Shown here piece by piece: positions 8,478-42,458 of a stretch of 64,000 nucleotides of DNA (its first letter is position 1; each line of letters starts with the position of its first letter). This DNA is from Candidatus Yanofskybacteria bacterium (GTDB lineage Bacteria > Patescibacteriota > Minisyncoccia > 2-02-FULL-40-12 > IGHO2-01-FULL-4-A), in assembly GCA_016181175.1 (NCBI GenBank), contig JACOZV010000001.1:75778-139777 (forward strand). The letters are read 5' to 3'. The notes below the pieces were generated by a model. It was not told the DNA's origin. It made no database searches and worked only from the letters and a program-made list of their open reading frames with translations. The position numbers and the translations under genes were made by a program.

Positions 8478-9110
8478 ATGCATATTCATAGCGATCAAAT
8501 CATAAATAACCTCAAATTATTGCGCAAAAAGGGGTACAGCATACATGAGTTAATGGACAAATTTTCTTTACCGAAAACAACAATATGGCACCATGTTCAT
8601 AAAATAAAATTACCGCCAGAAATTATATTACGACTTAGGACTGCTGGAGGTAGAACTAGTAGTGCTCGTAAAAAACTGGCTTTAGAAAAAGCAGAAAAAG
8701 AAGCATCAGAAATCATTAATAGCAATCTAAAGTATCATGTGAGTATTTTGGCAATGCTCTATTGGGCAGAAGGTGATAACAAAAATAATTTTTCCTTCGT
8801 CAATACCAATGCTGGCATGATTAAACTCGTAATACACATACTGGATAAATGTTTGGGTGTGAAAAGAAATCAATTATTAATAACGGTTCGATACTTTACA
8901 GGCATGGATCAAAATAAGTGTCTGGAGCATTGGTCAAAAGTTACAGGAGTTTCCAAAAATCGTATTAGAATGTATTATAACGATGGTTATCACAGGGGAA
9001 GAACAGAATTTGGAATGTGTCGGATTGGAGTAAAAAAAAGTAGCTATCTTTTTAAATTGGTCCGATCATTAATTAACGGCTTAGTTAACGAAATAATTTT
9101 GCCCCGGTAG
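8478..9110 (+). CDS. HTH-domain plus LAGLIDADG-like endonuclease-like protein (paralog B); its stop codon overlaps the tRNA-Arg 5' end
   Basis: HTH-like NNLKLLRKKGYSIHELMDKFSLPKTTIWHH; LAMLYWAEGD matches LAGLIDADG at 6 of 9 positions; shares motif blocks with 6351..7036. Confidence 0.5.
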   Translation: MHIHSDQIINNLKLLRKKGYSIHELMDKFSLPKTTIWHHVHKIKLPPEIILRLRTAGGRTSSARKKLALEKAEKEASEIINSNLKYHVSILAMLYWAEGDNKNNFSFVNTNAGMIKLVIHILDKCLGVKRNQLLITVRYFTGMDQNKCLEHWSKVTGVSKNRIRMYYNDGYHRGRTEFGMCRIGVKKSSYLFKLVRSLINGLVNEIILPR

Positions 9111-9173
9111 CTCAATTGGAAGAGCGGTCCCGTCCTAAGGGAAAGGTTGTGGGTTCAAATCCTGCCCGGGGTA
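9101..9173 (+). tRNA. tRNA-Arg(CCT); no encoded CCA
   Basis: GCCCCGG acceptor, D-arm GCTCAATTGGAAGAGC, anticodon loop GTCCTAA, T-loop TTCAAAT; one anticodon-stem mismatch. Confidence 0.7.
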
Positions 9174-9180
9174 CTTATTA

Positions 9181-10659
9181 GTGCAAAAATCAAAAAGTAA
9201 AAATCAAAGTTACGAAATTCCTAAAGAAGTTAGGGAGGTTTTGAATAAACTTGAGAGCACGGACTACGAAGCCCATATTGTCGGCGGGAGCGTGAGACAC
9301 TTGATAATGGGCGAACAGCCGAATGACTGGGATATAACCACCAACGCTAAACCCGAAGAAATACAACAACTTTTTCCCGATAGTTTTTACGAAAACAAAT
9401 TCGGAACTGTTGGTATTAAAACCCGTAGCGACGATTCGGTTTTGCAAGTAGTGGAGGTTACGACTTATCGCATTGAGTCTAAATATACCGACAAAAGGCA
9501 TCCCGATGAAATTAAGTATGCCGATAAAATTGAAGACGACCTGAAAAGGAGGGATTTTACAATTAATGCCCTCGCAATGAACAGCAGCGGAGAAATTATT
9601 GACTTATTTGGCGGTCGTGAGGATATAAAAAATAAGATTATTCGCGCAGTCGGTAATCCCGGTGAAAGATTCAGCGAAGACGCTTTGCGTATGATGCGAG
9701 CGGTTAGGTTTGTGGCCCAGCTTGGTTTTGAAATTGAACACGACACCCTTGAAGCAGCCAGGGAAAATAACGGACTTATGGCGGCTGTATCCAAGGAGCG
9801 CATTCGCGATGAGTTTGTTGGAGTAATCAACTCACAGGATGCTTACAAAGGCGTAGACATGCTTCGCGAAACAGGATTGCTGAAATTTGTTTTGCCGGAA
9901 CTGTTGGAAGGTGTAGGCGTCGGTCAAAACAAACACCACATTTATAATGTTTGGGAGCACAATCTGCTAGCTCTCAAATATGCTTGTGACAAAAACTATT
10001 CGTTTGAAGTTCGTATGGCCTCATTGCTTCATGACGTCGGTAAACCCAGGAGTAAAAGAGGGGAGGGACCAGATTCTACTTTTTATGGTCATGAGGTAAT
10101 CGGTGCGTTCATGGCCGCACAGATTATGGATCGTCTTAAATTTTCCAAGGAGCAAGCCGATAAAATTATTAAATTGGTGCGTTATCATCTTTTTTACTAC
10201 AATGTTGGCGAGGTTACGGAATCGTCGGTCAGGCGTCTTGTCGCGAATATTGGCAAAGAAAATGTTGAAGATTTGATAAAAGTGCGTGAAGCCGATAGAA
10301 TCGGTTCGGGTGTGCCTAAGGCTAAGCCATACAAGTTGCGCCATCTGCAGTTTATGATAGACAAGGTGGCGCGGGATCCTATTTCTCCCAAGATGCTCAA
10401 GATAAATGGAAATGACATAATGGAATTGCTGGGCATTAAGCCGGGTGTAAAGGTTGGCATGATTGTACATGCACTTATGAATGAAGTGCTGGACAAACCA
10501 AGTAAAAATACCAGAGAATCTCTTGAAGCAAGAGCCAGAGAATTAAATCAACTTTCAGAAACTGAACTTGCTGAATTCGGCAAAAAAGGTAAACAAAAAG
10601 CTTTAACCGAAGAAGAAAAAGAAATAGAAAAAATTAAAGCGAAATATTATGTGGAATAA
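9181..10659 (+). CDS. cca: CCA-adding enzyme (tRNA nucleotidyltransferase, PolyA-polymerase head plus HD domain), GTG start
   Basis: GGSVRHLIMG…DWDI…RRDFTINALA nucleotidyltransferase motifs, then an HD domain (LLHDVGK). Confidence 0.85.
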   Translation: MQKSKSKNQSYEIPKEVREVLNKLESTDYEAHIVGGSVRHLIMGEQPNDWDITTNAKPEEIQQLFPDSFYENKFGTVGIKTRSDDSVLQVVEVTTYRIESKYTDKRHPDEIKYADKIEDDLKRRDFTINALAMNSSGEIIDLFGGREDIKNKIIRAVGNPGERFSEDALRMMRAVRFVAQLGFEIEHDTLEAARENNGLMAAVSKERIRDEFVGVINSQDAYKGVDMLRETGLLKFVLPELLEGVGVGQNKHHIYNVWEHNLLALKYACDKNYSFEVRMASLLHDVGKPRSKRGEGPDSTFYGHEVIGAFMAAQIMDRLKFSKEQADKIIKLVRYHLFYYNVGEVTESSVRRLVANIGKENVEDLIKVREADRIGSGVPKAKPYKLRHLQFMIDKVARDPISPKMLKINGNDIMELLGIKPGVKVGMIVHALMNEVLDKPSKNTRESLEARARELNQLSETELAEFGKKGKQKALTEEEKEIEKIKAKYYVE

Positions 10660-16293: not shown

Positions 16294-19200
16294 GTGTCCA
16301 AACATCTAAAAATCATAATATTCTCACTTTTCTTGGTCGCTGGCTTTACTATGAAGTCAGATTTTGCTTCTGCTGCATCCCGTTATTGGGTAGGCGGGGG
16401 ATCATCAACAAACTGGAATGCTACCGGCCCCACTAATTGGTCAGCCACATCAGGAGGAACTAATAATGACACAGTTCCCAATTCTACTGATGATGTTTTT
16501 TTCAATTCCAGTTCCGGTACCGGTAATTCCGTAATTTCTGCATCTATTACCATCAACTCTTTTGATGCTACTGGATATACTGGAACCCTGACCCACAATG
16601 CCAGTGTTACCCTGACGATTTCTGGGAGCGGGGTAGTTTTCAAACTAGCATCGGGGATGACATATACAAAAGGAGGTAATACGAGTTCTGCCCTTTCCTT
16701 TACCGGCACATCGGGTACTACGATGATAACAACAGCAGGGAAGACTATCGGTAAGATAACTTTTAATGGCGTGGGAGGATCATGGCAATTACAGGATGCC
16801 TTAAATGCTGCAGGTACCGCTTCGCAAATTATTTTAACTAGTGGTAACTTTGATTCCAATAATTTTAATGTGACAATGGGATCTTTTGTTTCCAGTAATT
16901 CCAATACTCGTACGCTGACAATGGGATCTAGTACTTGGAAGCTTCAAGATGGCGGAACTATCGTTTGGAATCTCGCAACCGTCACGGGTCTTAGTTTGAA
17001 TGCGGGTACCTCTACGATTGTGATTTCTAGTACGAACGGTAGCGGAAAAACATTCGCTGGTGGGGGACAAACATATTATAATGTTGTTTTTTCGGGGGAC
17101 AATATCAACATTTCGGATTCCAATACTTTTAATAATTTTGCTATTAATAATGCTGGCCTGACAAATGGGTTAGCCTTGGGGGTAGGGAAGACACAGACTA
17201 TTATGGGATCATTTACGACTAATGGATCTGCGGGAAGTTTAGCGATTCTTAAAACTACTACATCGGGTAGTACTGCAACTTTGTCAAAAGCGTCGGGAAC
17301 AGTTTGCGTTGACTACATGAGTATTAAAGACTCAACCGTTAGCGGTGGCGCCTCTTGGTATGCCGGAGCCAACTCCACGAATGTGTCAGGCAATACAGGT
17401 TGGACATTCTCTGCTTGCCCCGGTGGAGACACCACCCCTCCCACAGTTTCAATATCTTCCCCAACAGCAGGATTAACAGTTTCAGGCAATACCACGGTTT
17501 CAGCCACCGCCTCTGATAATGTAGGAGTATCTGGCGTCCAATTCAAATTAGATGGAGTAAATCTTGGAGTAGAAGATATTGACTCCCCATATTCAATAAC
17601 CTGGGATACAACCGCTACTACCGATGGCTCTCATGATCTTACCGCTACCGCTCGTGATGCATCAGGCAATCAAACTACTTCATCTGCCGTGACGGTTACA
17701 GTAAGCAATCCCACCCCTACCCCCACCCCCACCCCCACCCCCACCCCTACCCCCACCCCTACACCTTTGCCGGCAACTGGTATTCCCGTTATTTTCTTTA
17801 CCGATCTTGAGTCGGGTCCCAACACAGGCGGAGAGAACAACAATGGCGCCTTTGTCACAATTTACGGCAAAAACCTTTCCGGCAGTACTGTTACAGTGGG
17901 AGGAGGATCAGCAATTATTAAACTAACCTCAACCCCATATCTCTGGTATGAAAAAATGGCAATTCAATTAGGAGCGAGTACTAATTCTGGCAATATCATA
18001 GTTACTAATGCATATGGCTCATCCAATAACTTACCATTTACTGTGAGAGCGGGTAATGTTTATTGCGTTTCAATGACTGGTGCAGACTCCAATAATGGAA
18101 AATTTACTACCGAAACACCGCCATCAGCTGGCGTACAAGGATGTTGGCTAAATGTATACAAGGCAAAAAATACAATTGCCGCAGGTGACATCGCCTATAT
18201 CCTGGATGGTGCGAACCAGACAACCCCTGAACCAGGAACGGGAGTAGCACTTCAAATTTCTAACGGTGGAAATTTGGGGAATCCGAAGGCTTTGATTGTC
18301 TACCCAGGTGGCACTTCTGTTTTAGGTGCCATAGGTAGCGGCGACTGGGTGGGTTCTGTGGGCGGTATTAAGGTACTGGGGAGTGCCAGCAATGCAGACT
18401 ATATTACCATCGCCGGGTTTACATTCAAAACTTTTAGTAGTGCGCTCTCAATTTCTGGTAACACATATCCCAGCGCACAACACTGGAGATTTATCGGCAA
18501 TTATCTGACCTGTCCCGGGGGTGATGGGCAGTCCGCTTGTGCCTCCCCGGGTTCCATGGAATACCTGGAGTTTTTAGGAAACGAGATTACGGATGCTGGC
18601 TGCAAAGAAGGGGGAACGCAGAATTGTAAACTCATTAGCCCCGCAAACACAATCACGACAGTTGGCACAACACTGACGCTGAGTGGTTTTACTTCTGGCG
18701 TGAATCTCGGTGCTAGAATCTGCGTAACGACCTGCGCATCAGGGCAAGTTCGTCATATCGTAGCGGCTGGACCAAATAACCTAAACTGGATACTCGATAG
18801 CGCATTCACGTCTGATGTTACGGATTCGACATTTCAGTTTCGTTACGGATTAACATCGAAGCAGTACCACTCTGTTTATGTGGATAACAGTGATCACATC
18901 GAAATTGGGTGGAGCTACATCCACAACAATAACTCCTGTCGTGGGATTTTGACCAACTCGACCGGTACAACCGGTGGGCACCAACAGCACGATCTCTCTT
19001 ACCACGACAACATCATTCATCATCAAACCTGTGCCGGAATCGACCTCAACACCGTGGACCCCAATACTGGGCCAGTCGAGGTCTACAACAATTTGATCTA
19101 CCATGTCGGGACAGGGCCAACTCCACATGATGGCATCGGTAATCTTGCGTGCATTTATTCTGGTGATAATAATCGAAGCTCTCCAGGGGCTGGAACAATT

Positions 19201-34612: not shown

Positions 34613-35151
34613 GGCCATAATCAAATATATGAATAAATTCCACAATAATTTCATAACAAAAAGCGGCTGAAGCCAAGTTCTTAATTTGCGTTTACAAGCA
34701 GCCGCGTAAATCGCGGATTTTTTATCAAAATTGAATATATTAGAGCCATTATTGGCTGTCGTCGGGCATCTCCTTACGGAGGTGCCCGACGGAAGCTAAC
34801 ACTAAACCGATTGAATAGATTGCAATTTAAAAAATAAATAGTTAGCGGGTATCCCGGTTAGAGCTTGCGATTGCCACAAGTGGCAATCCACCTCTAACGG
34901 GATTAAAAAATTGCATTTCTGCATTTAGAAATGAGTTCCAAAATGCAGAATAAGTAGATTGAATTCGATCTATCAATAGAGATCGAGGATTTAATCTTGT
35001 AAGGAATTATTAAGGGCGTATGGAGGATGCCTTGACACCAAAAGGCGACGAAGGACGTGGCGTGACGACGATATGCTTCGGGGAGCCGTCTAGCGGGCTT
35101 TGATCCGGAACATCTCAGTAGCCAGAGGAAAATAAAACAAACCCCGCACCT

Positions 35152-35799: not shown

Positions 35800-36128
35800 T
35801 TTACAAGTGGTTTATCCAGCTTCACTTTTGGTTTATGATGACTTTATGTGGATAGTTTATATTATTCAGAACAATCTAACTGAAAAAATATATATTGGCT
35901 GTACAAATGATCTCAAGAAACGAGTCGAAAAGCATAACAGCCAAACAAATAAAGGTTATACAAGACGACTTATCGGTCAATGGATTTTGATATACGCGGA
36001 AGCTTATAGAAGCAAAGAAGATGCTTTTCGACGGGAGTCAAAACTCAAAGACCACGGTAGTTCTAAACATGAATTGAAGAAGAGAATCAGCAATTCATTG
36101 TTAAAACCAAAAGTGAGGCTGGATTAAG
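35800..36128 (+). mobile_element. Stem-bounded intervening sequence in the 23S helix-25 region carrying a GIY-YIG ORF
   Basis: 19-bp stem CCAGCTTCACTTTTGGTTT (35816-35834) / AAACCAAAAGTGAGGCTGG (36104-36122) enclosing the ORF; inserted between …GAATGATCCAACGAG and GGATAAGCCCGTATAGGG…GGAAACCGAGTG. Confidence 0.65.
35846..36127 (+). CDS. GIY-YIG nuclease-family protein (YhbQ/UPF0213-like) encoded inside the 23S IVS
   Basis: WIVYIIQNNLTEKIYIGCTNDLKKRVEKHN…YTRR…WILIYAEAYRSKEDAFRRESKLK is a GIY-YIG motif set; an alternative GTG start lies at 35807. Confidence 0.7.
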   Translation: MWIVYIIQNNLTEKIYIGCTNDLKKRVEKHNSQTNKGYTRRLIGQWILIYAEAYRSKEDAFRRESKLKDHGSSKHELKKRISNSLLKPKVRLD

Positions 36129-36624: not shown

Positions 36625-37305
36625 CAGCTTACTGCTCGAATTCTAATTTCGGTTAGACGAGGAAAGTGGCGCCGAAGATTCAACGGGGCTAAGCATAGTA
36701 CCGAATGCGTGGACCGTCCCGATTTATCGGGATGAGTGGTAGGGGAGCACTTCAAGCCGCTGCGAAGGTGTGTCGTGAGGCATGCTGGAGCGCTTGGAGG
36801 AGAGAATGTTGGAATGAGTAACCACAAGCGAGGTGAGAACCCTCGCCGCCGTAAGCCTAAGGTTTCCTCCGCAATGTCAATCACCGGAGGGTTAGGCGAC
36901 GCTAAGGATAACCGTGCCTACGGGCATGGGAAGCCGATGCTAAGCCGGTTAATATTCCGGCCCTTCCATATGTATTGATGGAGCGACGGAGGATATAAGC
37001 TGGAGCAGATTATTGGATTTCTGTTTTTGGATTCCAGGATTGTCGTTTGGAAAATCCGGCGACTGACTTTAATGTCAAAATACGAATTTGAAGAAATCAC
37101 GGGTAACCGTGGGATTCCAGTGAAGAGCCTTCCAAGAAAAACTTCTAAAATTATGCATATGGGAAACGTACTTAAAACCGACACAGGTGGGCTAGTGTAA
37201 GTGCACTAAGGCGAACGGGTGATTATTGGCTAAGGAACTCGGCAAAAAAGTGGCCGTACCTTCGGTATAAGGCCTACCTGACCGTGCCTCACTGCGTTCG
37301 GCACG

Positions 37306-37410
37306 AATTTTTAAATTTTTAATTTTATAATTTTAATAAATAATTTCTAATGTTTAAAAATTAAAAACATTAAGATTTATTTAAAAATTAAAAATTGGAA
37401 ATTAAAAATT
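37306..37410. repeat. AT-rich palindromic hairpin repeat (family A), full ORF-less copy inserted in a variable 23S helix near the helix-63 region
   Basis: AATTTTTAAATTTTTAATTTTATAATTTTAATAAATAATTTCTAATGTTTAAAAATTAAAAACATTAAGATTTATTTAAAAATTAAAAATTGGAAATTAAAAATT; arms are mutual reverse complements; central mini-hairpin TAATGTTT/AAACATTA; flanked by 23S exon sequence. Confidence 0.75.
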
Positions 37411-37632
37411 CTAACAAGCCGAGCATAGCGAGGCGCGGTTGGGTCGCAGCTAACGAACCCCTGGCGACTGTTTATCTAAAACACAACTCTGTGCTAAGCC
37501 GAAAGGCGCTGTATACAGGGTGACGCTTGTCCAGTGCTGGAACGTTAACGGTGGAGGTGGTATGCAGCAATGTGTATTGCCAACGCCCGAAGCGCCAGTG
37601 AACGACGGCGATAACTATAATCGTCCAAAGGT

Positions 37633-38949
37633 TTTGAGAATTTGTCAGATGGCAAGTTCTCAAAAGGACTTGGCCGATTGTAGTGAATTTATATTGATAA
37701 ACAAAAGTAGCTGCCTATCGCGTGACGAAAGTTTTACGCGATGTCTTAAAATATATTCGATCATATGCTGGAAAGTCTGAGTATCCACAACTACTATGGT
37801 ATGATGTTACCTTTGGTGATAAAATATATCTATGCCAAGTAAAAATGTTAGTGGTGCAGACGATCAGCAGGAAAGTCTGAAAATGATGGGTTGGATAACA
37901 GGTTTTGTTGATGGGGAAGGATGTTTTACTGTCAGTATATTCAAGAATTACAAAGCTCAACGCAAGCTCGGATGGCAAGTATTCCCTGAGTTTGTAGTTT
38001 CCCAAGGAGAGAAGAGCTTGAGCGTTCTCGAACTGATCAAGAACTACTTCAACTGTGGTTATATAATAAAAAATAAAAGGAACGATAACCACCACGAAGA
38101 TATGTTCAAATACTGTGTGAGATCTTTGTCGGATCTAGAAACCAAAATTGTGCCATTCTTTACCCAAAACAAACTCCTAACCGCAAAGCGAAGAGATTTT
38201 ATAATCTTTAAGGAAATCCTAAAAATGATGGGTCGCAAGGACCACCTTAACCTTAAAGGACTTAGAAAAATTGCCTCTCTAGCTTTGCAGATGAATCGTA
38301 AAAAAAGACCCAAGTTTTCAGAAATCCTCAGAGACTAAACGTCGAACCCGCTCAAATTTTTGGACTTAAATAAAAAAAACCTCAACTGAGGTTTCGATGA
38401 ATTTGCTATTAATAATCAATTATAGGAGCTTGTTCGTGCCGCTTATCTATACCTTTAAATCTACTGTCGGTACGGATTTTCCTAATGGTATTTCGTGGTA
38501 ATTCACATTGAATCAGCATAATATCATTGTTTCTGAGTTTAACATTAAATTCTACTATGCCATATTCTATAAAATATATAATAAGAGATGCTACCCAGCG
38601 TACATGAACACGAAGAGTTAATTTTTCCATGAATTTTCCACCTTTCTTTTGTGATTTAAAATGAACTTTGAAATGCAACACCAATAAACTAAATGTTTAC
38701 TGGTTTGCCCTACTCGCCCTGATTTGTAAAAGGATGAGGAAAATAAGGATAACCCTTTACTTTACTCGTCTTTTAGCTGATTTTTATTGTAAAATAAGGA
38801 CAAATCAGATGTTGCACTTCGGGGGTAAATGCGAGCGAAGAAACCCAGTGGTAAGTATAAATCAATTAAAATTTAGTGTCAATAGTCCAAAAATTTGAGC
38901 GGGAAGATATAGTCCGAACTGCATGGCGACATGCAGAGTAACATACTTA
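37633..38949 (+). mobile_element. Intron in 23S at the E. coli ~1917 site (CCAAAGGT | AGCGAAATTCC) carrying a LAGLIDADG homing-endonuclease gene
   Basis: Exon junction reconstitutes AAGGTAGCGAAATTCC; 1317-nt insert; internal 19-bp long-range pairing CCCGCTCAAATTTTTGGAC / GTCCAAAAATTTGAGCGGG; 3' motif GAACTGCATGGCGACATGCAGAG shared with the insert at 39499. Confidence 0.7.
37832..38338 (+). CDS. LAGLIDADG homing endonuclease (single-motif, I-CreI-like), intron-encoded
   Basis: 168 aa; MMGWITGFVDGEGCF LAGLIDADG motif. Confidence 0.8.
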   Translation: MPSKNVSGADDQQESLKMMGWITGFVDGEGCFTVSIFKNYKAQRKLGWQVFPEFVVSQGEKSLSVLELIKNYFNCGYIIKNKRNDNHHEDMFKYCVRSLSDLETKIVPFFTQNKLLTAKRRDFIIFKEILKMMGRKDHLNLKGLRKIASLALQMNRKKRPKFSEILRD

Positions 38950-39169
38950 AGCGAAATTCCTTGTGGGGTAAGTTCCCACGCGCATGAATAGCGGAACGAC
39001 TGGGGGACTGTCTCAGCCAATAGCCCGGTGAAAATGCAATGTCAGTAAACGAGTTTTTATGCGTAGTGTAGTGGCGAGCCTTTGAAGTCATGTTCTTGGA
39101 TGTGATGGAGGCGACAATGAAACAGCCATCTTAAAGACTTGTAATTCTAACTGGTGTAACCCTAGGAGG

Positions 39170-39441
39170 TAAAATATGTTTTCTGATAAAAAACCAATAG
39201 AATATTGGATGCAAGAACTAATGAATCTAAAACATGAATGTGATCTGATGACAGAAAGGATAAGGAGTACCAGAGCGAACATTGAATATCTAATAGATTC
39301 AATCAAAGACAGAAGTCCAAAAGGAGTTGACCCAGAAAAATGGAAAAAGTTTTTAGCAGAATGGAATTCGTTTCAAATTGAATATAGTAACTTCCAATTT
39401 TAGTTTAAGTCGCCCTATTTTTAGGCAAGTTTTATTTGCCT
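39170..39441 (+). mobile_element. Stem-bounded IVS in the 23S domain V (helix-79-equivalent) region with a 75-aa ORF preceded by a perfect SD
   Basis: 14-bp stem GTAACCCTAGGAGG / CTTCCTAGGGTTAC encloses the insert; AGGAGGTAAAATATG gives SD spacing of 6 nt. Confidence 0.6.
39176..39403 (+). CDS. Small helical hypothetical protein encoded in the 23S IVS
   Basis: 75 aa (MFSDKKPIEYWMQELMNLKHECDLMTERIRS…); strong SD; no recognised family. Confidence 0.45.
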   Translation: MFSDKKPIEYWMQELMNLKHECDLMTERIRSTRANIEYLIDSIKDRSPKGVDPEKWKKFLAEWNSFQIEYSNFQF

Positions 39442-39498
39442 CTTCCTAGGGTTACATCAAGACAGTGCCTGGTGGGTAGTTTAACTGGGGCTGTTGCC

Positions 39499-39995
39499 TT
39501 AACGCGGTATTCGTTACACCGCATGGGGCCTACTGAAAGTAATTTCAGTATGCAAATTCGACTATATGCTGGAACCCCCGCGCATATCTGAATACTCTAC
39601 TTAGTAGCTGAGCTACTAAGTAAGTGAAAATTTTGGATCGATGCGGACAATCAGCAGGGAAGTTCTTCAATTAAATTCAGGACCCCTCAACGACTGTACG
39701 TCGAGTGCCGCGAAGCGGCAATGATACAGTCTGAACTGCATGGCGACATGCAGAGCTGGGCAGAAATGACCCGGCCGCCTATAAAATTTGGTTTTTTAAG
39801 GCCATGTTTTATGGGAAGGGTTTAGCGAATAATGCCTTATAGCACCGTTGAAGCTGTGCGATTGCACGGTTTGCGAGCAGTATAATTTTTCACTGCGAGT
39901 AAAATCCACAGATTCAACGGAGCGTAGCAACCTCGCTGGGGTTGCAAGCGGTGATAGAAGGTATTATTCGCTAAACCTGCAAAGTAACACAATTG
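39499..39995 (+). other. ORF-less structured insertion (intron or IVS) in 23S between GGGGCTGTTGCC and CCTAAAGAGTAACGGAGG
   Basis: About 497 nt with no ORF of 60 aa or more; contains GTCTGAACTGCATGGCGACATGCAGAG, near-identical to the 3' motif of the 37633..38949 intron, and a 20-bp internal stem GGTTTAGCGAATAATGCCTT / AAGGTATTATTCGCTAAACC. Confidence 0.5.
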
Positions 39996-40250
39996 CCTAA
40001 AGAGTAACGGAGGCGTTCATTAAGGTCGGCTAGCTGCGGATGGAAATCGCAGCGATAGTGTAAAGGCAAAAGCCGGCTTAACTGCGAGACGGATGTGTCG
40101 AGCAGGTGCGAAAGCAGGACTTAGTGAACCGACCGTTGGTCGTAGGACCGCGGAAGATCATCAGACAAAAGCTACTCCGGGGATAACAGGCTGGTACTGC
40201 CCGAGCGTCCCTAGCGACGGCAGTGTTCGGCACCTCGATGTCGGCTCGGC

Positions 40251-40769
40251 TTTTAATCGACTTTTTAACTGTTTGAGCCCGAGGAAAAGACATCAAAATA
40301 TAAATCACGGCGCAATAATATAGGAATATATTATTGACTGCTAACTTATATCGGTAAAACCCATTCGGTAAACTCGGGGTAATACCGAGAGAAGTTATTT
40401 GTTCAAATTTTTGGAAAAATAAAAAAGACCCTATTGGGTCATGTAAAATATGGCAAATGGTAAGGTAATGGCTAAAACAAATTGAAAGCGACAGAGACCA
40501 TCAGTATAGATTTTTTTGAAAGATCCAAGGGCTATAAGAGAGTTAAAAATCCAGAAAATAAGCATTAAAACCAGAGATATTAGCAGTTGTTGGGAGTTCA
40601 TTATTGCCTCCTAAATTAAATATAATTGATTATTAAATTATTGTCAATACCCAATTAATTTGACTCCAAAAATTTGAACAAATAACACTCGTAGAGACTA
40701 AATGTTAGCCATCCAATCTGCCAATCAGTGGAGGATGAAGTTATGGTCCAATGCACATAGTAATATGTG
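40251..40769 (+). other. ORF-less insertion in 23S after CACCTCGATGTCGGCTCGGC (E. coli ~2510 region); boundaries unresolved
   Basis: About 500 nt without an ORF; internal long-range pairing TTGTTCAAATTTTTGGAAAAAT / GACTCCAAAAATTTGAACAA resembles the module in the 37633..38949 intron; exon resumes near GAAACATGCGTGAGACAGGTTGGTCC. Confidence 0.4.
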
Positions 40770-40840
40770 GAAACATGCGTGAGACAGGTTGGTCCTTATC
40801 TGGTGCGGGCGTTGAAGTTTGAGGGGGGTTGTCCCTAGTA

Positions 40841-41614
40841 AGAAATTGCTACTTCACGCAGTAATGCGTGATGACAACTCGGCTAATAACGGTGAAATCT
40901 TATTATTTTTGTGTTCGTTGATAACTACAATTGTCGCGGTCCGACAATTATAGTACAATTTACTTGAGGACCAGAAATAATTAAGACGATACCGTGGGAA
41001 GTCAATCTAAAATTGATTTAGCATATATTGCAGGTTTTCTTGATGGTGACGGAAGCTTGATGTTACAAATCAAGAGACGCAAAGATGGAACCAAAAAGTT
41101 TCGCTTTATGTCTACAATTTGTTTTTATCAGGATAGTAACCACGAAGAATTTCTGCATTGGATAAAAAATATTCTTGGAATTGGTTATTTGACTCAAAGA
41201 GATGATGGCATGAGTGAACTAAGAATTAATGGATTTAAACAAGTTAAAGATATAATAAAAAACTTATTGCCATTTATTAAATTCAAGAAAAATCAAGCCA
41301 ATGCTATTTATGAAGCAACTAGCATGATGAGCAGTAAGATTCTAAGCCGTTTAACCAAGCAGGAATTGTTAAAAATCGTAGATTTAATGCTTATAATTCA
41401 AAAGCATAATTATAAATCTAGAAGCAAGAAAACCAAAAAAGAACTCATTCAATTATTAGATTTGACCCCGTAACGACTTGTCGAGTTTAGCTCGACGGAT
41501 GATTAGCGATGAGATTGCATCAATGGTTAATCATAACATGCCGATTCCCTGAATCCGCTTTTTGCGGGAGGGAAAAGATATAGTCTACACTTATAGTGAT
41601 ATAAGATTTTGTGA
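40841..41614 (+). mobile_element. Intron in the 23S sarcin-ricin loop (CCCTAGTA | CGAGAGGACCGG) carrying a LAGLIDADG homing-endonuclease gene
   Basis: Flanking exons reconstitute CCTAGTACGAGAGGACCGG exactly; 774-nt insert. Confidence 0.7.
40994..41473 (+). CDS. LAGLIDADG homing endonuclease, intron-encoded
   Basis: 159 aa; LAYIAGFLDGDGSL LAGLIDADG motif. Confidence 0.8.
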   Translation: MGSQSKIDLAYIAGFLDGDGSLMLQIKRRKDGTKKFRFMSTICFYQDSNHEEFLHWIKNILGIGYLTQRDDGMSELRINGFKQVKDIIKNLLPFIKFKKNQANAIYEATSMMSSKILSRLTKQELLKIVDLMLIIQKHNYKSRSKKTKKELIQLLDLTP

Positions 41615-42282
41615 CGAGAGGACCGGGATGAACGAACCTCTGGTCTACCAATTGTTTTGCCAAAAGCAGCGTTGGGTAGCTATGTTCGGTTCCGATAAGC
41701 GCTGAAAGAGATTTGAGGCGAGGCGAAGCAAAAACAACGAGGCATGGCTTGTGCCATGTCAAGGAGTTTTTGTGAAGCCGCAGCTCAAATATATAAATTG
41801 CAGCAGAAATGATTATTAAGTCGGAGGCACAAAGATTCGTGAGAGATTATCACGTTGATAGGGCGCAGGTGTAAGCGCGGTAACGCGTTCAGCCGAGCGC
41901 TACTAATAAATCATCAATTCCTTACAAGATTAAGTCCTTATGACCTTCGCGCTTAAACTGCGGAGCCCCCAAAATCTAAGGGGCTGGCCGCAGTTAAGCC
42001 GCAAGGATTTGCCCAATTTCTTCGTTAAGCACTCCGGTGCTCCCTCGCCATACCTCTAGTATGGCTCGGTTCACTCCTCGTGCTTGCCTCGAACTTGGCC
42101 AAACGCGAAGGTCAAAAATGCAAAAACACCCCTTTAACTATAAAAACTAAAAACCATTTGCTTGGTGGTTATACCGGAAGTGTCCCACCCGATCCTCCCG
42201 CCCATGTACACATAGGCGGGATTGCGATTTGCAGTTGTGCTCGTTACACTGTGCGCAAGCAAATCGGTAACATTCAGACTTG

Positions 42283-42458
42283 CCCCGCACCAAAATTAAA
42301 AATTAAAGCCAGCAAGTTGGTGACTATACTGTGAGTGCTCCACCTGTTCCCATTCCGAACACAGAAGTGAAATCTCGCAAGGCCCATGATAGTACAGTGC
42401 TTAGCATTGTGCGAAAGTAGGTAGTCGCCAGCTTGCTGGTTTTAATTTTGGTGCGGGG
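42283..42458. repeat. Family-B inverted repeat (CCCCGCACCAAAATTAAAA … TTTTAATTTTGGTGCGGGG) enclosing the 5S gene as an extended processing-stem/hairpin
   Basis: Left arm 42283-42307, right arm 42440-42458, 19 bp perfectly complementary. Confidence 0.6.
42308..42439 (+). rRNA. rrf: 5S rRNA with a 16-bp extended terminal helix
   Basis: GGTGACTATACTGTGAGTGCTCCACCTGTTCCCATTCCGAACACAGAAGTGAAATCTCGCAAGGCCCATGATAGTACAGTGCTTAGCATTGTGCGAAAGTAGGTAGTCGCCAGC; ends GCCAGCAAGTTGG / CCAGCTTGCTGG pair. Confidence 0.8.

Follow-up and report, generated by a model that had tools for sequence, protein, structure and literature searches.

The 23S rRNA locus

The subject of this analysis is a 23S rRNA gene from a metagenome-assembled genome (MAG) of Candidatus Yanofskybacteria, a lineage of the candidate phyla radiation (CPR), which in its deposited form is missing three stretches of exon, among them parts of the peptidyl-transferase centre (PTC). 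The window, by which we mean the whole stretch of 64,000 nucleotides (64 kb) that was analysed, holds this gene on the plus strand from position 35000 to about 41930, as delimited by the Rfam large-subunit (LSU) rRNA model RF02541 and by exon maps against the E. coli 23S (L001:2583-5487) and the intron-less 23S of the relative L008. The model scores 1108.9 bits over the 5' part of the gene and gives further matches of 187.6, 71 and 43.7 bits in domains IV-VI; the E. coli numbering used here corresponds to canonical +1 in domain V, as checked at 2057 and 2447. At least four group I introns and several further insertions interrupt the gene, and an intact 5S rRNA gene follows downstream (42316-42433, plus strand; RF00001, 82 bits), while Rfam found neither a 16S gene nor a second LSU copy within the window. 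The gene order of MS-channel protein, 23S, 5S, a 259-aa protein, RodA, RpoC and RpoB recurs in relatives, in GTDB genomes as well as ENA assemblies, and because this flanking order recurs we regard the window gene as the orthologous 23S locus of the clade, presumably its sole copy.

Seven related 23S genes served for comparison, taken from six Yanofskybacteria/Paceibacterota assemblies and one unbinned metagenome contig (loci L002, L007, L008, L031/L032, L036, L037 and L038) and coming from at least three different projects and assemblers. The exact limits of the gaps were read from alignments to the intron-less L008, to the other relatives and to E. coli.

Three exon stretches are absent from the deposited gene

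At the first junction, D1 (39049/39050, plus strand), 66 nt are missing, corresponding to E. coli 2032-2098. The loss comprises the 3' strand of H72, the 5' strand of H73, the central-loop stretch G2057-C2063 and the 5' strands of H74 and H75, and with them the nucleotides G2057, A2058, A2059, G2061, A2062 and C2063. The flanks abut directly, with no insert and a microhomology of 1 nt, and the Infernal LSU alignment of positions 38940-42300 leaves model positions of about 2049-2120 (columns ...GAAGAUGCcggcUACcCgCggcagGACgGAAAGACCCCGUGgAcCUUUACUguAgcc...) gapped at window positions 39046-39052. In L002, L008, L007, L031 and L032 the same segment is present in identical or nearly identical form. 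A first-pass annotation of this DNA, made by eye, had missed a block equivalent to about E. coli 2058-2090 at about 39046-39061; Infernal, the relatives and the E. coli alignments agree that the block is truly absent, and the positions were right to within a few bases.

The second junction, D2 (40252/40253, plus strand), lacks 76 nt of exon (E. coli 2518-2593) together with roughly the first 11 nt of the intron that should follow, including its 5' splice site, so that about 87 nt are gone in total. This takes out the 3' part of H90, H91, the A-loop of H92 and the 5' strand of H93, and the nucleotides lost are U2552, G2553, U2555, G2583, U2584 and U2585. The Infernal alignment lacks about 100 model positions after CACCUCGAUGU and flags the remaining partner strands as unpaired. 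Here L031, L036, L037 and L038 read ...GGCTCGGCTT ATCCTGG...AACCGT/TAAGAAGTTGATTTATTCGAC... (a slash marks a splice site), whereas the window reads GGCTCGGCTTTTAATCGAC: its exon ends at GGCTCGGCTT and runs straight into TTAATCGACTTTTTAAC. The earlier impression that most of 2515-2580 was missing around an insert at 40251-40769 was thus correct, the missing exon being 2518-2593 and the insert in fact occupying 40253-40777.

That insert (40253-40777, plus strand) is a 5'-truncated group I intron without its open reading frame (ORF), located at the L2593 (I-CreI) site, and both of its ends are homologous to the intron of L031. The latter is 736 nt long (9049-9784), carries a LAGLIDADG ORF and lies between U2593 and C2594 (...GGGTTCAAACCGT/TAAGAAGTTGATTTATTCGACTTTTTAAC...ATATG/CGTGAGACAGG); three more metagenome contigs, L036-L038, have an L2593 intron, and the upstream exon is intact in each. 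Relatives with this intron show the 5' splice site AACCGT/TAAGAAG..., whereas in the window this splice site and the exon strand before it are deleted. The 3' splice site is intact at 40777/40778, with a terminal G (...AACATG/CGTGAGACAGG; ...GAAACATG/CGTGAGACAGG) and the 3' exon CGTGAGACAG. Against the Rfam Intron_gpI model (RF00028) the intron reaches 39.6 bits (E=1.9e-07) at 40589-40770, short of the gathering score of 50, and its core-like segments align with the introns of L031 and L002. No LAGLIDADG remnant or endonuclease ORF was found by tblastn in 40253-40777, and the sole ORF within the truncated intron had no matches in a protein search. A 10-nt stretch of the intron, ACTGTTTGAG (ACCGTTTGAA in L031), is complementary at 9/10 positions to the canonical 5' exon end TTCAAACCGT, and we take this complementarity to mark the putative internal guide of the intron. 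TTCAAACCGT itself is absent from the window, and ACTGTTTGAG is not complementary to the sequence now lying upstream.

In the locus L037 (an ERZ1292629 contig from Hainich groundwater), a further intron precedes the L2593 intron by about 110 nt; it ends in ...GATAATTGTG/GTCGGCTCGG, near E. coli 2503/2504, and is one more of the many introns clustered at the peptidyl-transferase centre of this clade.

The third junction, D3 (41708/41709, plus strand), lacks about 76 nt, made up of E. coli 2752-2788 and some 39 nt of a lineage-specific hairpin. The 3' strand of H97 and the conserved GAAAC...CCCCAAGAU core are lost; the equivalent of E. coli 2752-2788 is present in L002, L007, L008 and L031. An expansion hairpin that the window shares with L002 alone has lost its 5' strand as well, and its orphaned 3' strand, ATTATTAAGTCGGAGGCACAAAG, remains at about 41810-41832.

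Between D1 and D2 much of the catalytic region survives. The retained domain V exon at 39996-40252 (plus strand; E. coli 2263-2517) is 96.5% identical to L008, with exact matches to GGGATAACAGGCT and CACCTCGATGTCGGCTC, and keeps G2447, A2450, A2451 (window position 40186), C2452 and U2504-U2506; G2251/G2252 and A2602 are retained in the gene as well. The ring of peptidyl-transferase nucleotides is nevertheless incomplete, with G2057-C2063, G2553 and G2583-U2585 absent and A2451 and U2504-2506 present, and of H73, H74, H90, H93 and H97 a single strand each is kept, the partners being marked unpaired by Infernal. A covariance alignment had been named at the outset as the analysis that could overturn the suspicion of missing segments; the Infernal alignment does not place all PTC nucleotides in exons. 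The gene as deposited could not yield a working ribosome.

Are the segments present elsewhere? Searches of the 64 kb on both strands, using the E. coli and clade versions as blastn-short queries, IUPAC patterns allowing 3 mismatches and fuzzy regular expressions allowing 2-4, found none of the D1-D3 segments and returned only chance 9-16-mers, while control patterns from neighbouring exons matched exactly in the same searches. The best stray match, a 16-mer at 9305-9320 on the minus strand, was rejected: it lies inside a coding sequence and has no extended similarity. The first-pass annotation had offered unrecognised intron boundaries or embedded exon pieces as one explanation and divergence as another. 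The former fails because the segments are nowhere in the 64 kb and D1 is a clean 66-nt gap with no insert, and the latter because relatives with 92-94% identical exons carry the canonical GACGGAAAGACCCCG, GGCTGTTCGCC and GAGCTGGGTTCAAACCGT at these places. That segments are present but overlooked, as strongly diverged sequence or small exons inside the inserts, is a notion to which we give practically no credence: the gene does have many inserts and Rfam aligns only parts of it per pass, but the searches with E. coli and clade versions were empty while controls were exact, the D1 flanks abut, and a known intron can be aligned with the 40253-40777 insert over its full length, so that this reading is already refuted.

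The remainder of the gene and its surroundings are intact

Among the seven relatives the D2 segment is intact in 7/7, the D1 segment in five and the D3 segment in four, that is, in every case where the site is covered; the gaps are private to the assembly of the window. How far, then, has the rest of this gene decayed? In domains IV-VI, identity between the retained exons and the relatives is 92-100%. Over 924 comparable columns the window has 20 substitutions of its own, compared with 9-24 in four relatives; E. coli sides with the majority at 15/20 of these positions, compared with 3-13 in the relatives. The retained exons show no excess of substitutions and no sign of relaxed selection, and in this respect do not have the character of a pseudogene. 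The partner strands of the missing strands of H73, H74, H75, H90, H93 and H97 are kept and conserved, and the homing-endonuclease ORFs of the introns are intact by Pfam. The 57 kb outside the gapped rRNA consist of dense, long, uninterrupted ORFs, and the protein genes of the window are intact, with RpoB at 1050 aa and RpoC at 1193 aa compared with calls of 1050 and 1191 aa in the locus L034.

Origin of the gaps

We think it probable that the three gaps are local assembly or scaffolding errors in a short-read MAG and that the real 23S of the organism is intact. An evolved or long-standing state is disfavoured because the exons are undecayed, the partner strands are kept, the protein genes are intact and CPR bacteria normally have one 23S gene, the window holding the orthologous locus; an assembly defect is favoured because the segments are absent here yet present in relatives, the gene is undecayed and sister assemblies are defective nearby. 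The deletions are of nearly equal size (66, ~87 and ~76 nt), all are shorter than a read, and all lie within 2.7 kb of rRNA. If real, they would be lethal, with strands of core helices and A2058-C2063, G2553 and U2585 lost. The guide-like ACTGTTTGAG still fits the missing exon and not the new upstream sequence, which would likewise speak against relaxed selection. The suggestion, made before this analysis, of a partly degenerate rRNA copy therefore divides: it holds for the deposited sequence, which cannot encode a working PTC, and probably does not hold for the organism, since the evidence favours an assembly defect.

Defects of a similar kind occur in sister assemblies. The nearest sister MAG, L002 (NC_groundwater_572), has a perfect tandem duplication of 42 nt (two copies, 17218-17302) in universally conserved 23S sequence of the H71/H72 region; its end lies 24 nt upstream of D1. 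The MAG L007, from a different project, has a 100-N gap at 10280-10379, in H89/H90, between GGCACCT and CGATGTCGG, which is another sign that this region is poorly assembled in CPR MAGs. The sister MAGs L002 and L005 come from a groundwater project in which samples were assembled individually with MEGAHIT before the IDBA-UD scaffolder was applied, and whose supplementary tables list several Yanofskybacteria MAGs from one sample (PMC7906910). With several such MAGs in one sample, conserved 23S stretches would be shared nodes of the assembly graph. Co-occurring Yanofskybacteria would then share long identical 23S stretches at which the graph breaks; contigs flanking a short unresolved stretch could be joined with a wrong distance estimate, dropping 66-87 nt without a run of N, and overlapping contigs could be joined blindly, duplicating a piece. 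The final k of MEGAHIT is 141, and the default maximum k of IDBA-UD is 100, so the contig overlap that it assumes is 99. As 42 = 141-99, the L002 duplication would fit a mismatch of overlaps between the two programs, and a joining step of this kind would be the cause of the gaps in the window. One other artefact, repeat collapse, was considered and rejected: the introns that share GAACTGCATGGCGACATGCAGAG (38916-38940 and 39732-39756) flank no deletion, and no repeats bound D1-D3.

The gaps also resemble the local assembly errors described for MAGs (Chen et al. 2020, PMC7111523): they are short, local and structurally implausible, interrupt a scaffold that is good elsewhere and concentrate in sequence common to related populations. 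Errors of this type, without read support, are common in MAGs, and thirteen were counted in one 1.13-Mb CPR genome (PMC7111523). As in such cases, a single assembly shows the change and the relatives, assembled independently, are intact, and comparable structural errors are found in sister assemblies (the L002 duplication and, from a different project, the L007 N gap). MAG assembly errors are, however, defined by lack of perfect read support, whereas the gaps in the window are known from assembled sequence alone.

Several considerations weigh against an assembly artefact. The case for it is built on assembled sequences, and no independent assembly across the junctions was found among Logan, ENA and JGI contigs; Logan contigs of four runs do contain RodA and the 259-aa protein but stop in RodA, the 259-aa gene or the 5S, short of the 23S. 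Exact-protein look-ups found no record of two flanking proteins, one intron ORF, the ORF of an insert in H79, the LAGLIDADG protein P0121 or two spurious ORFs of the D2 area, one of which spans the junction while the other lies inside the intron. The window MAG appears to belong to the same groundwater project, to which its accession series (MBI206...), the SRR1211xxxx runs containing its RodA and its nearest neighbours all point; a comparison of the SRA runs with the supplements of the groundwater project (He et al.) gave no match. The RodA record MBI2062731.1 is 100% identical over 98% of the window ORF, and the LAGLIDADG record MBI2062729.1 is fully identical. A pure de Bruijn assembler cannot make a junction without supporting k-mers, and the microhomology is only 1-2 nt; an artefact must therefore have arisen at a joining or gap-handling step, which for this contig is deduced rather than demonstrated. 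Finally, there are no N runs and no 42-nt duplications within the window.

The alternative is a real and recent inactivation, in all or part of the population, of a 23S copy by three small deletions with little junction homology, one of which cut the 5' splice site of the L2593 intron. The deposited sequence does carry the junctions, and for a graph assembler to produce them, reads containing them are normally required; slippage or end-joining would be compatible with the microhomology of 1-2 nt at D1 and D2; and D2 adjoins the target region of a homing endonuclease, where double-strand breaks followed by faulty repair are conceivable. We nevertheless judge this explanation unlikely. It presupposes a heterogeneous population or a second 23S copy, since translation would need a second intact 23S or other genome copies in the cell, but CPR genomes basically have a single rRNA copy (PMC9297842), and the locus in the window is the conserved orthologous one. 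Three independent lethal events with no other decay would demand a very recent burst, and three deletions of near-equal size within 2.7 kb, with none in the 57 kb of neighbouring genes, are unlike a mutational spectrum. Nor does the D1 junction recur: it had 0 matches in JGI metagenomes and is on no other metagenome contig, and a scan of metagenomes for the 5' region of the L2593 intron returned three JGI contigs, in 3/3 of which the exon upstream of the intron is intact.

A more radical proposal would be that the 23S is naturally discontinuous, with pieces of 66-87 nt encoded elsewhere and joined in trans; base-pairing could hold them in place, or the truncated L2593 intron could use its guide to trans-splice the H90-H93 piece onto the 3' exon. 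The conserved partner strands of the missing helices would suit such an arrangement, and the truncated intron, with its guide-like stretch for the missing exon end, is formally like a 5'-truncated ribozyme that binds a 5' exon in trans. Trans-spliced group I introns are reported from an LSU rRNA gene of an algal mitochondrion (PMC3873408). Yet we hold this proposal to be highly improbable. No such pieces are in the 64 kb, and close relatives (92-94% exon identity) are all contiguous, so that the rearrangement would have to be of extremely recent date. Neither flank of D1 retains any intron remnant, D3 cuts in half an expansion hairpin that is not conserved, which would be senseless if a functional module had been relocated, and after trans-splicing the 5' 2.5 kb of the rRNA would remain attached to the intron.

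Relation to known rRNA genes and implications

Intron-rich 23S rRNA genes of CPR/Patescibacteria were reportedly described by Brown et al. in 2015. The window gene belongs in this company: its introns at L1931, L2593 and L2656 lie at or by the hot spots 1931, 2593 and 2657, several carry LAGLIDADG_1 ORFs, and they lie in the 3' part of the gene; ORF-bearing and ORF-less introns occur at the same site, and a 5' insertion holds a GIY-YIG ORF. In CPR 23S genes at large, LAGLIDADG group I introns concentrate at 1917, 1931, 1952, 2593, 2604 and 2657 around the PTC, and ORF-bearing and ORF-less versions share sites (Tsurumaki et al. 2024, PMC11270868). Unlike the published CPR genes, all of which keep their exon sequence, the window gene lacks three exon stretches and one 5' splice site. 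The truncated intron is similarly typical in part. It shares with the L2593 (I-CreI-site) family the insertion between U2593 and C2594 (ACCGT/CGTGAGACAG), the 3' end ...ATG/CGTGAGACAG and ends homologous to L031 and L036-L038, but unlike the family it is without its first ~11 nt, its upstream exon and an endonuclease ORF, and at 39.6 bits it stays below the gathering score in Rfam.

Natural reductions of CPR rRNA also leave segments of the 23S absent relative to E. coli. These are, however, losses of whole surface helices, H9, H63, H78 and H98, and common to lineages (Tsurumaki et al. 2022, PMC9297842), whereas the gaps in the window take away catalytic nucleotides and one strand each of core helices, and occur in one assembly only. 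Fragmented or scrambled organellar rRNAs resemble the window gene in that core pieces are absent from the main coding block; unlike in these rRNAs or in trans-spliced introns, no separate pieces were found in the window, the genes of the relatives are unbroken, and the break points bear no half-introns.

If the gaps are assembly errors, the 23S of a public Yanofskybacteria MAG has silently lost 66-87 nt at each of three places, with no N to flag the loss, and its sister MAG contains a 42-nt duplication. Silent defects of this kind in 23S genes can mislead rRNA phylogenies, the design of probes, structural comparisons of CPR ribosomes and surveys of rRNA "reductions", which suggests that scaffolds made from MEGAHIT contigs joined by the scaffolder of another program deserve checking. 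If the gaps are real, they denote either a dead copy of a normally single 23S or a catalytic centre built from separate pieces; the latter would be remarkable if true, and nothing here supports it.

Other introns and insertions of the gene

Among the intact introns, L2656, in the sarcin-ricin loop, occupies 40840-41613 (plus strand), contains an intact LAGLIDADG ORF (40994-41473; Pfam PF00961) and is 84% identical in DNA sequence to the intron of L031 at the same site. A ~313-nt insertion with a GIY-YIG ORF (35812-36124; Pfam E=1.1e-17) lies in domain I/II and is missing from 7/7 related 23S genes examined. Domain IV holds an AT-rich insertion of ~167 nt with a long hairpin (37279-37445), for which Rfam gave only spurious plant-miRNA matches on both strands, far under their gathering scores; it is probably an expansion of the intervening-sequence type. 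The loop of H79 bears an insertion of ~284 nt (39163-39446, plus strand) with a 75-aa ORF (39176-39403) behind a GGAGG Shine-Dalgarno sequence. Insertions of similar length are found in the H79 loop of L031 and L002. The 75-aa ORF is not homologous to the 81-aa ORF of L031 at the same place, and its sole Pfam match is LntA_helical (E=0.0045; 17.6 bits, under the curated cut-off of 26); it may be spurious. An apparent gap in the window relative to L008 positions 901-1028 was rejected as an anomaly, as the window has a proper short hairpin like that of E. coli and the relatives have expansions.

Group I intron L1931 spans 37633-38949 (plus strand; exon map) and combines a LAGLIDADG ORF (37832-38338; PF00961, E=1.2e-24) with an insertion of ~500 nt in a peripheral hairpin; Rfam Intron_gpI gives 26 bits at 38760-38936, and L007 has a homologous intron. 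The arms of the hairpin, CCCGCTCAAATTTTTGGACT and AGTCCAAAAATTTGAGCGGG (38346-38377 and 38885-38904), adjoin the conserved AAGATATAGTCC motif and enclose the ~500 nt; the hairpin beside AAGATATAGTCC we take to be P8 next to P7. Near-identical arms (CCCGCTCAAATTTTTGGACT / AGTCCAAAAATTTGAGCGGG) form a domain-I hairpin in the 23S of L008, L031 and L002, where those of L002 enclose a 519-nt insert, and are not at the corresponding site of the window (36179/36184). The hairpin module of the L1931 intron may be intron-derived or mobile. The idea that the 560 extra nucleotides of this intron are a misplaced domain-I block was rejected, since the arms are the intron's own hairpin beside AAGATATAGTCC and the introns of L002 and L007 have a hairpin in the same place.

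Group I intron L2262 (39500-39995, plus strand) lies just 3' of the P-loop and scores 67.6 bits against Rfam Intron_gpI; its 5' exon ends in U and the intron in G. The 3' tail of this intron (39817-39969) matches at 83%, on the opposite strand, an internal part of the 519-nt insert in domain I of L002, and insert sequences seem to have been swapped between sites and orientations. The L1931 and L2262 introns further share a near-identical hairpin close to the 3' end, GAACTGCATGGCGACATGCAGAG (38916-38940 and 39732-39756), which also occurs in the L1931 intron of L007 and is the last hairpin of the model in the Rfam alignment of L2262; it suggests that related introns reside at different sites.

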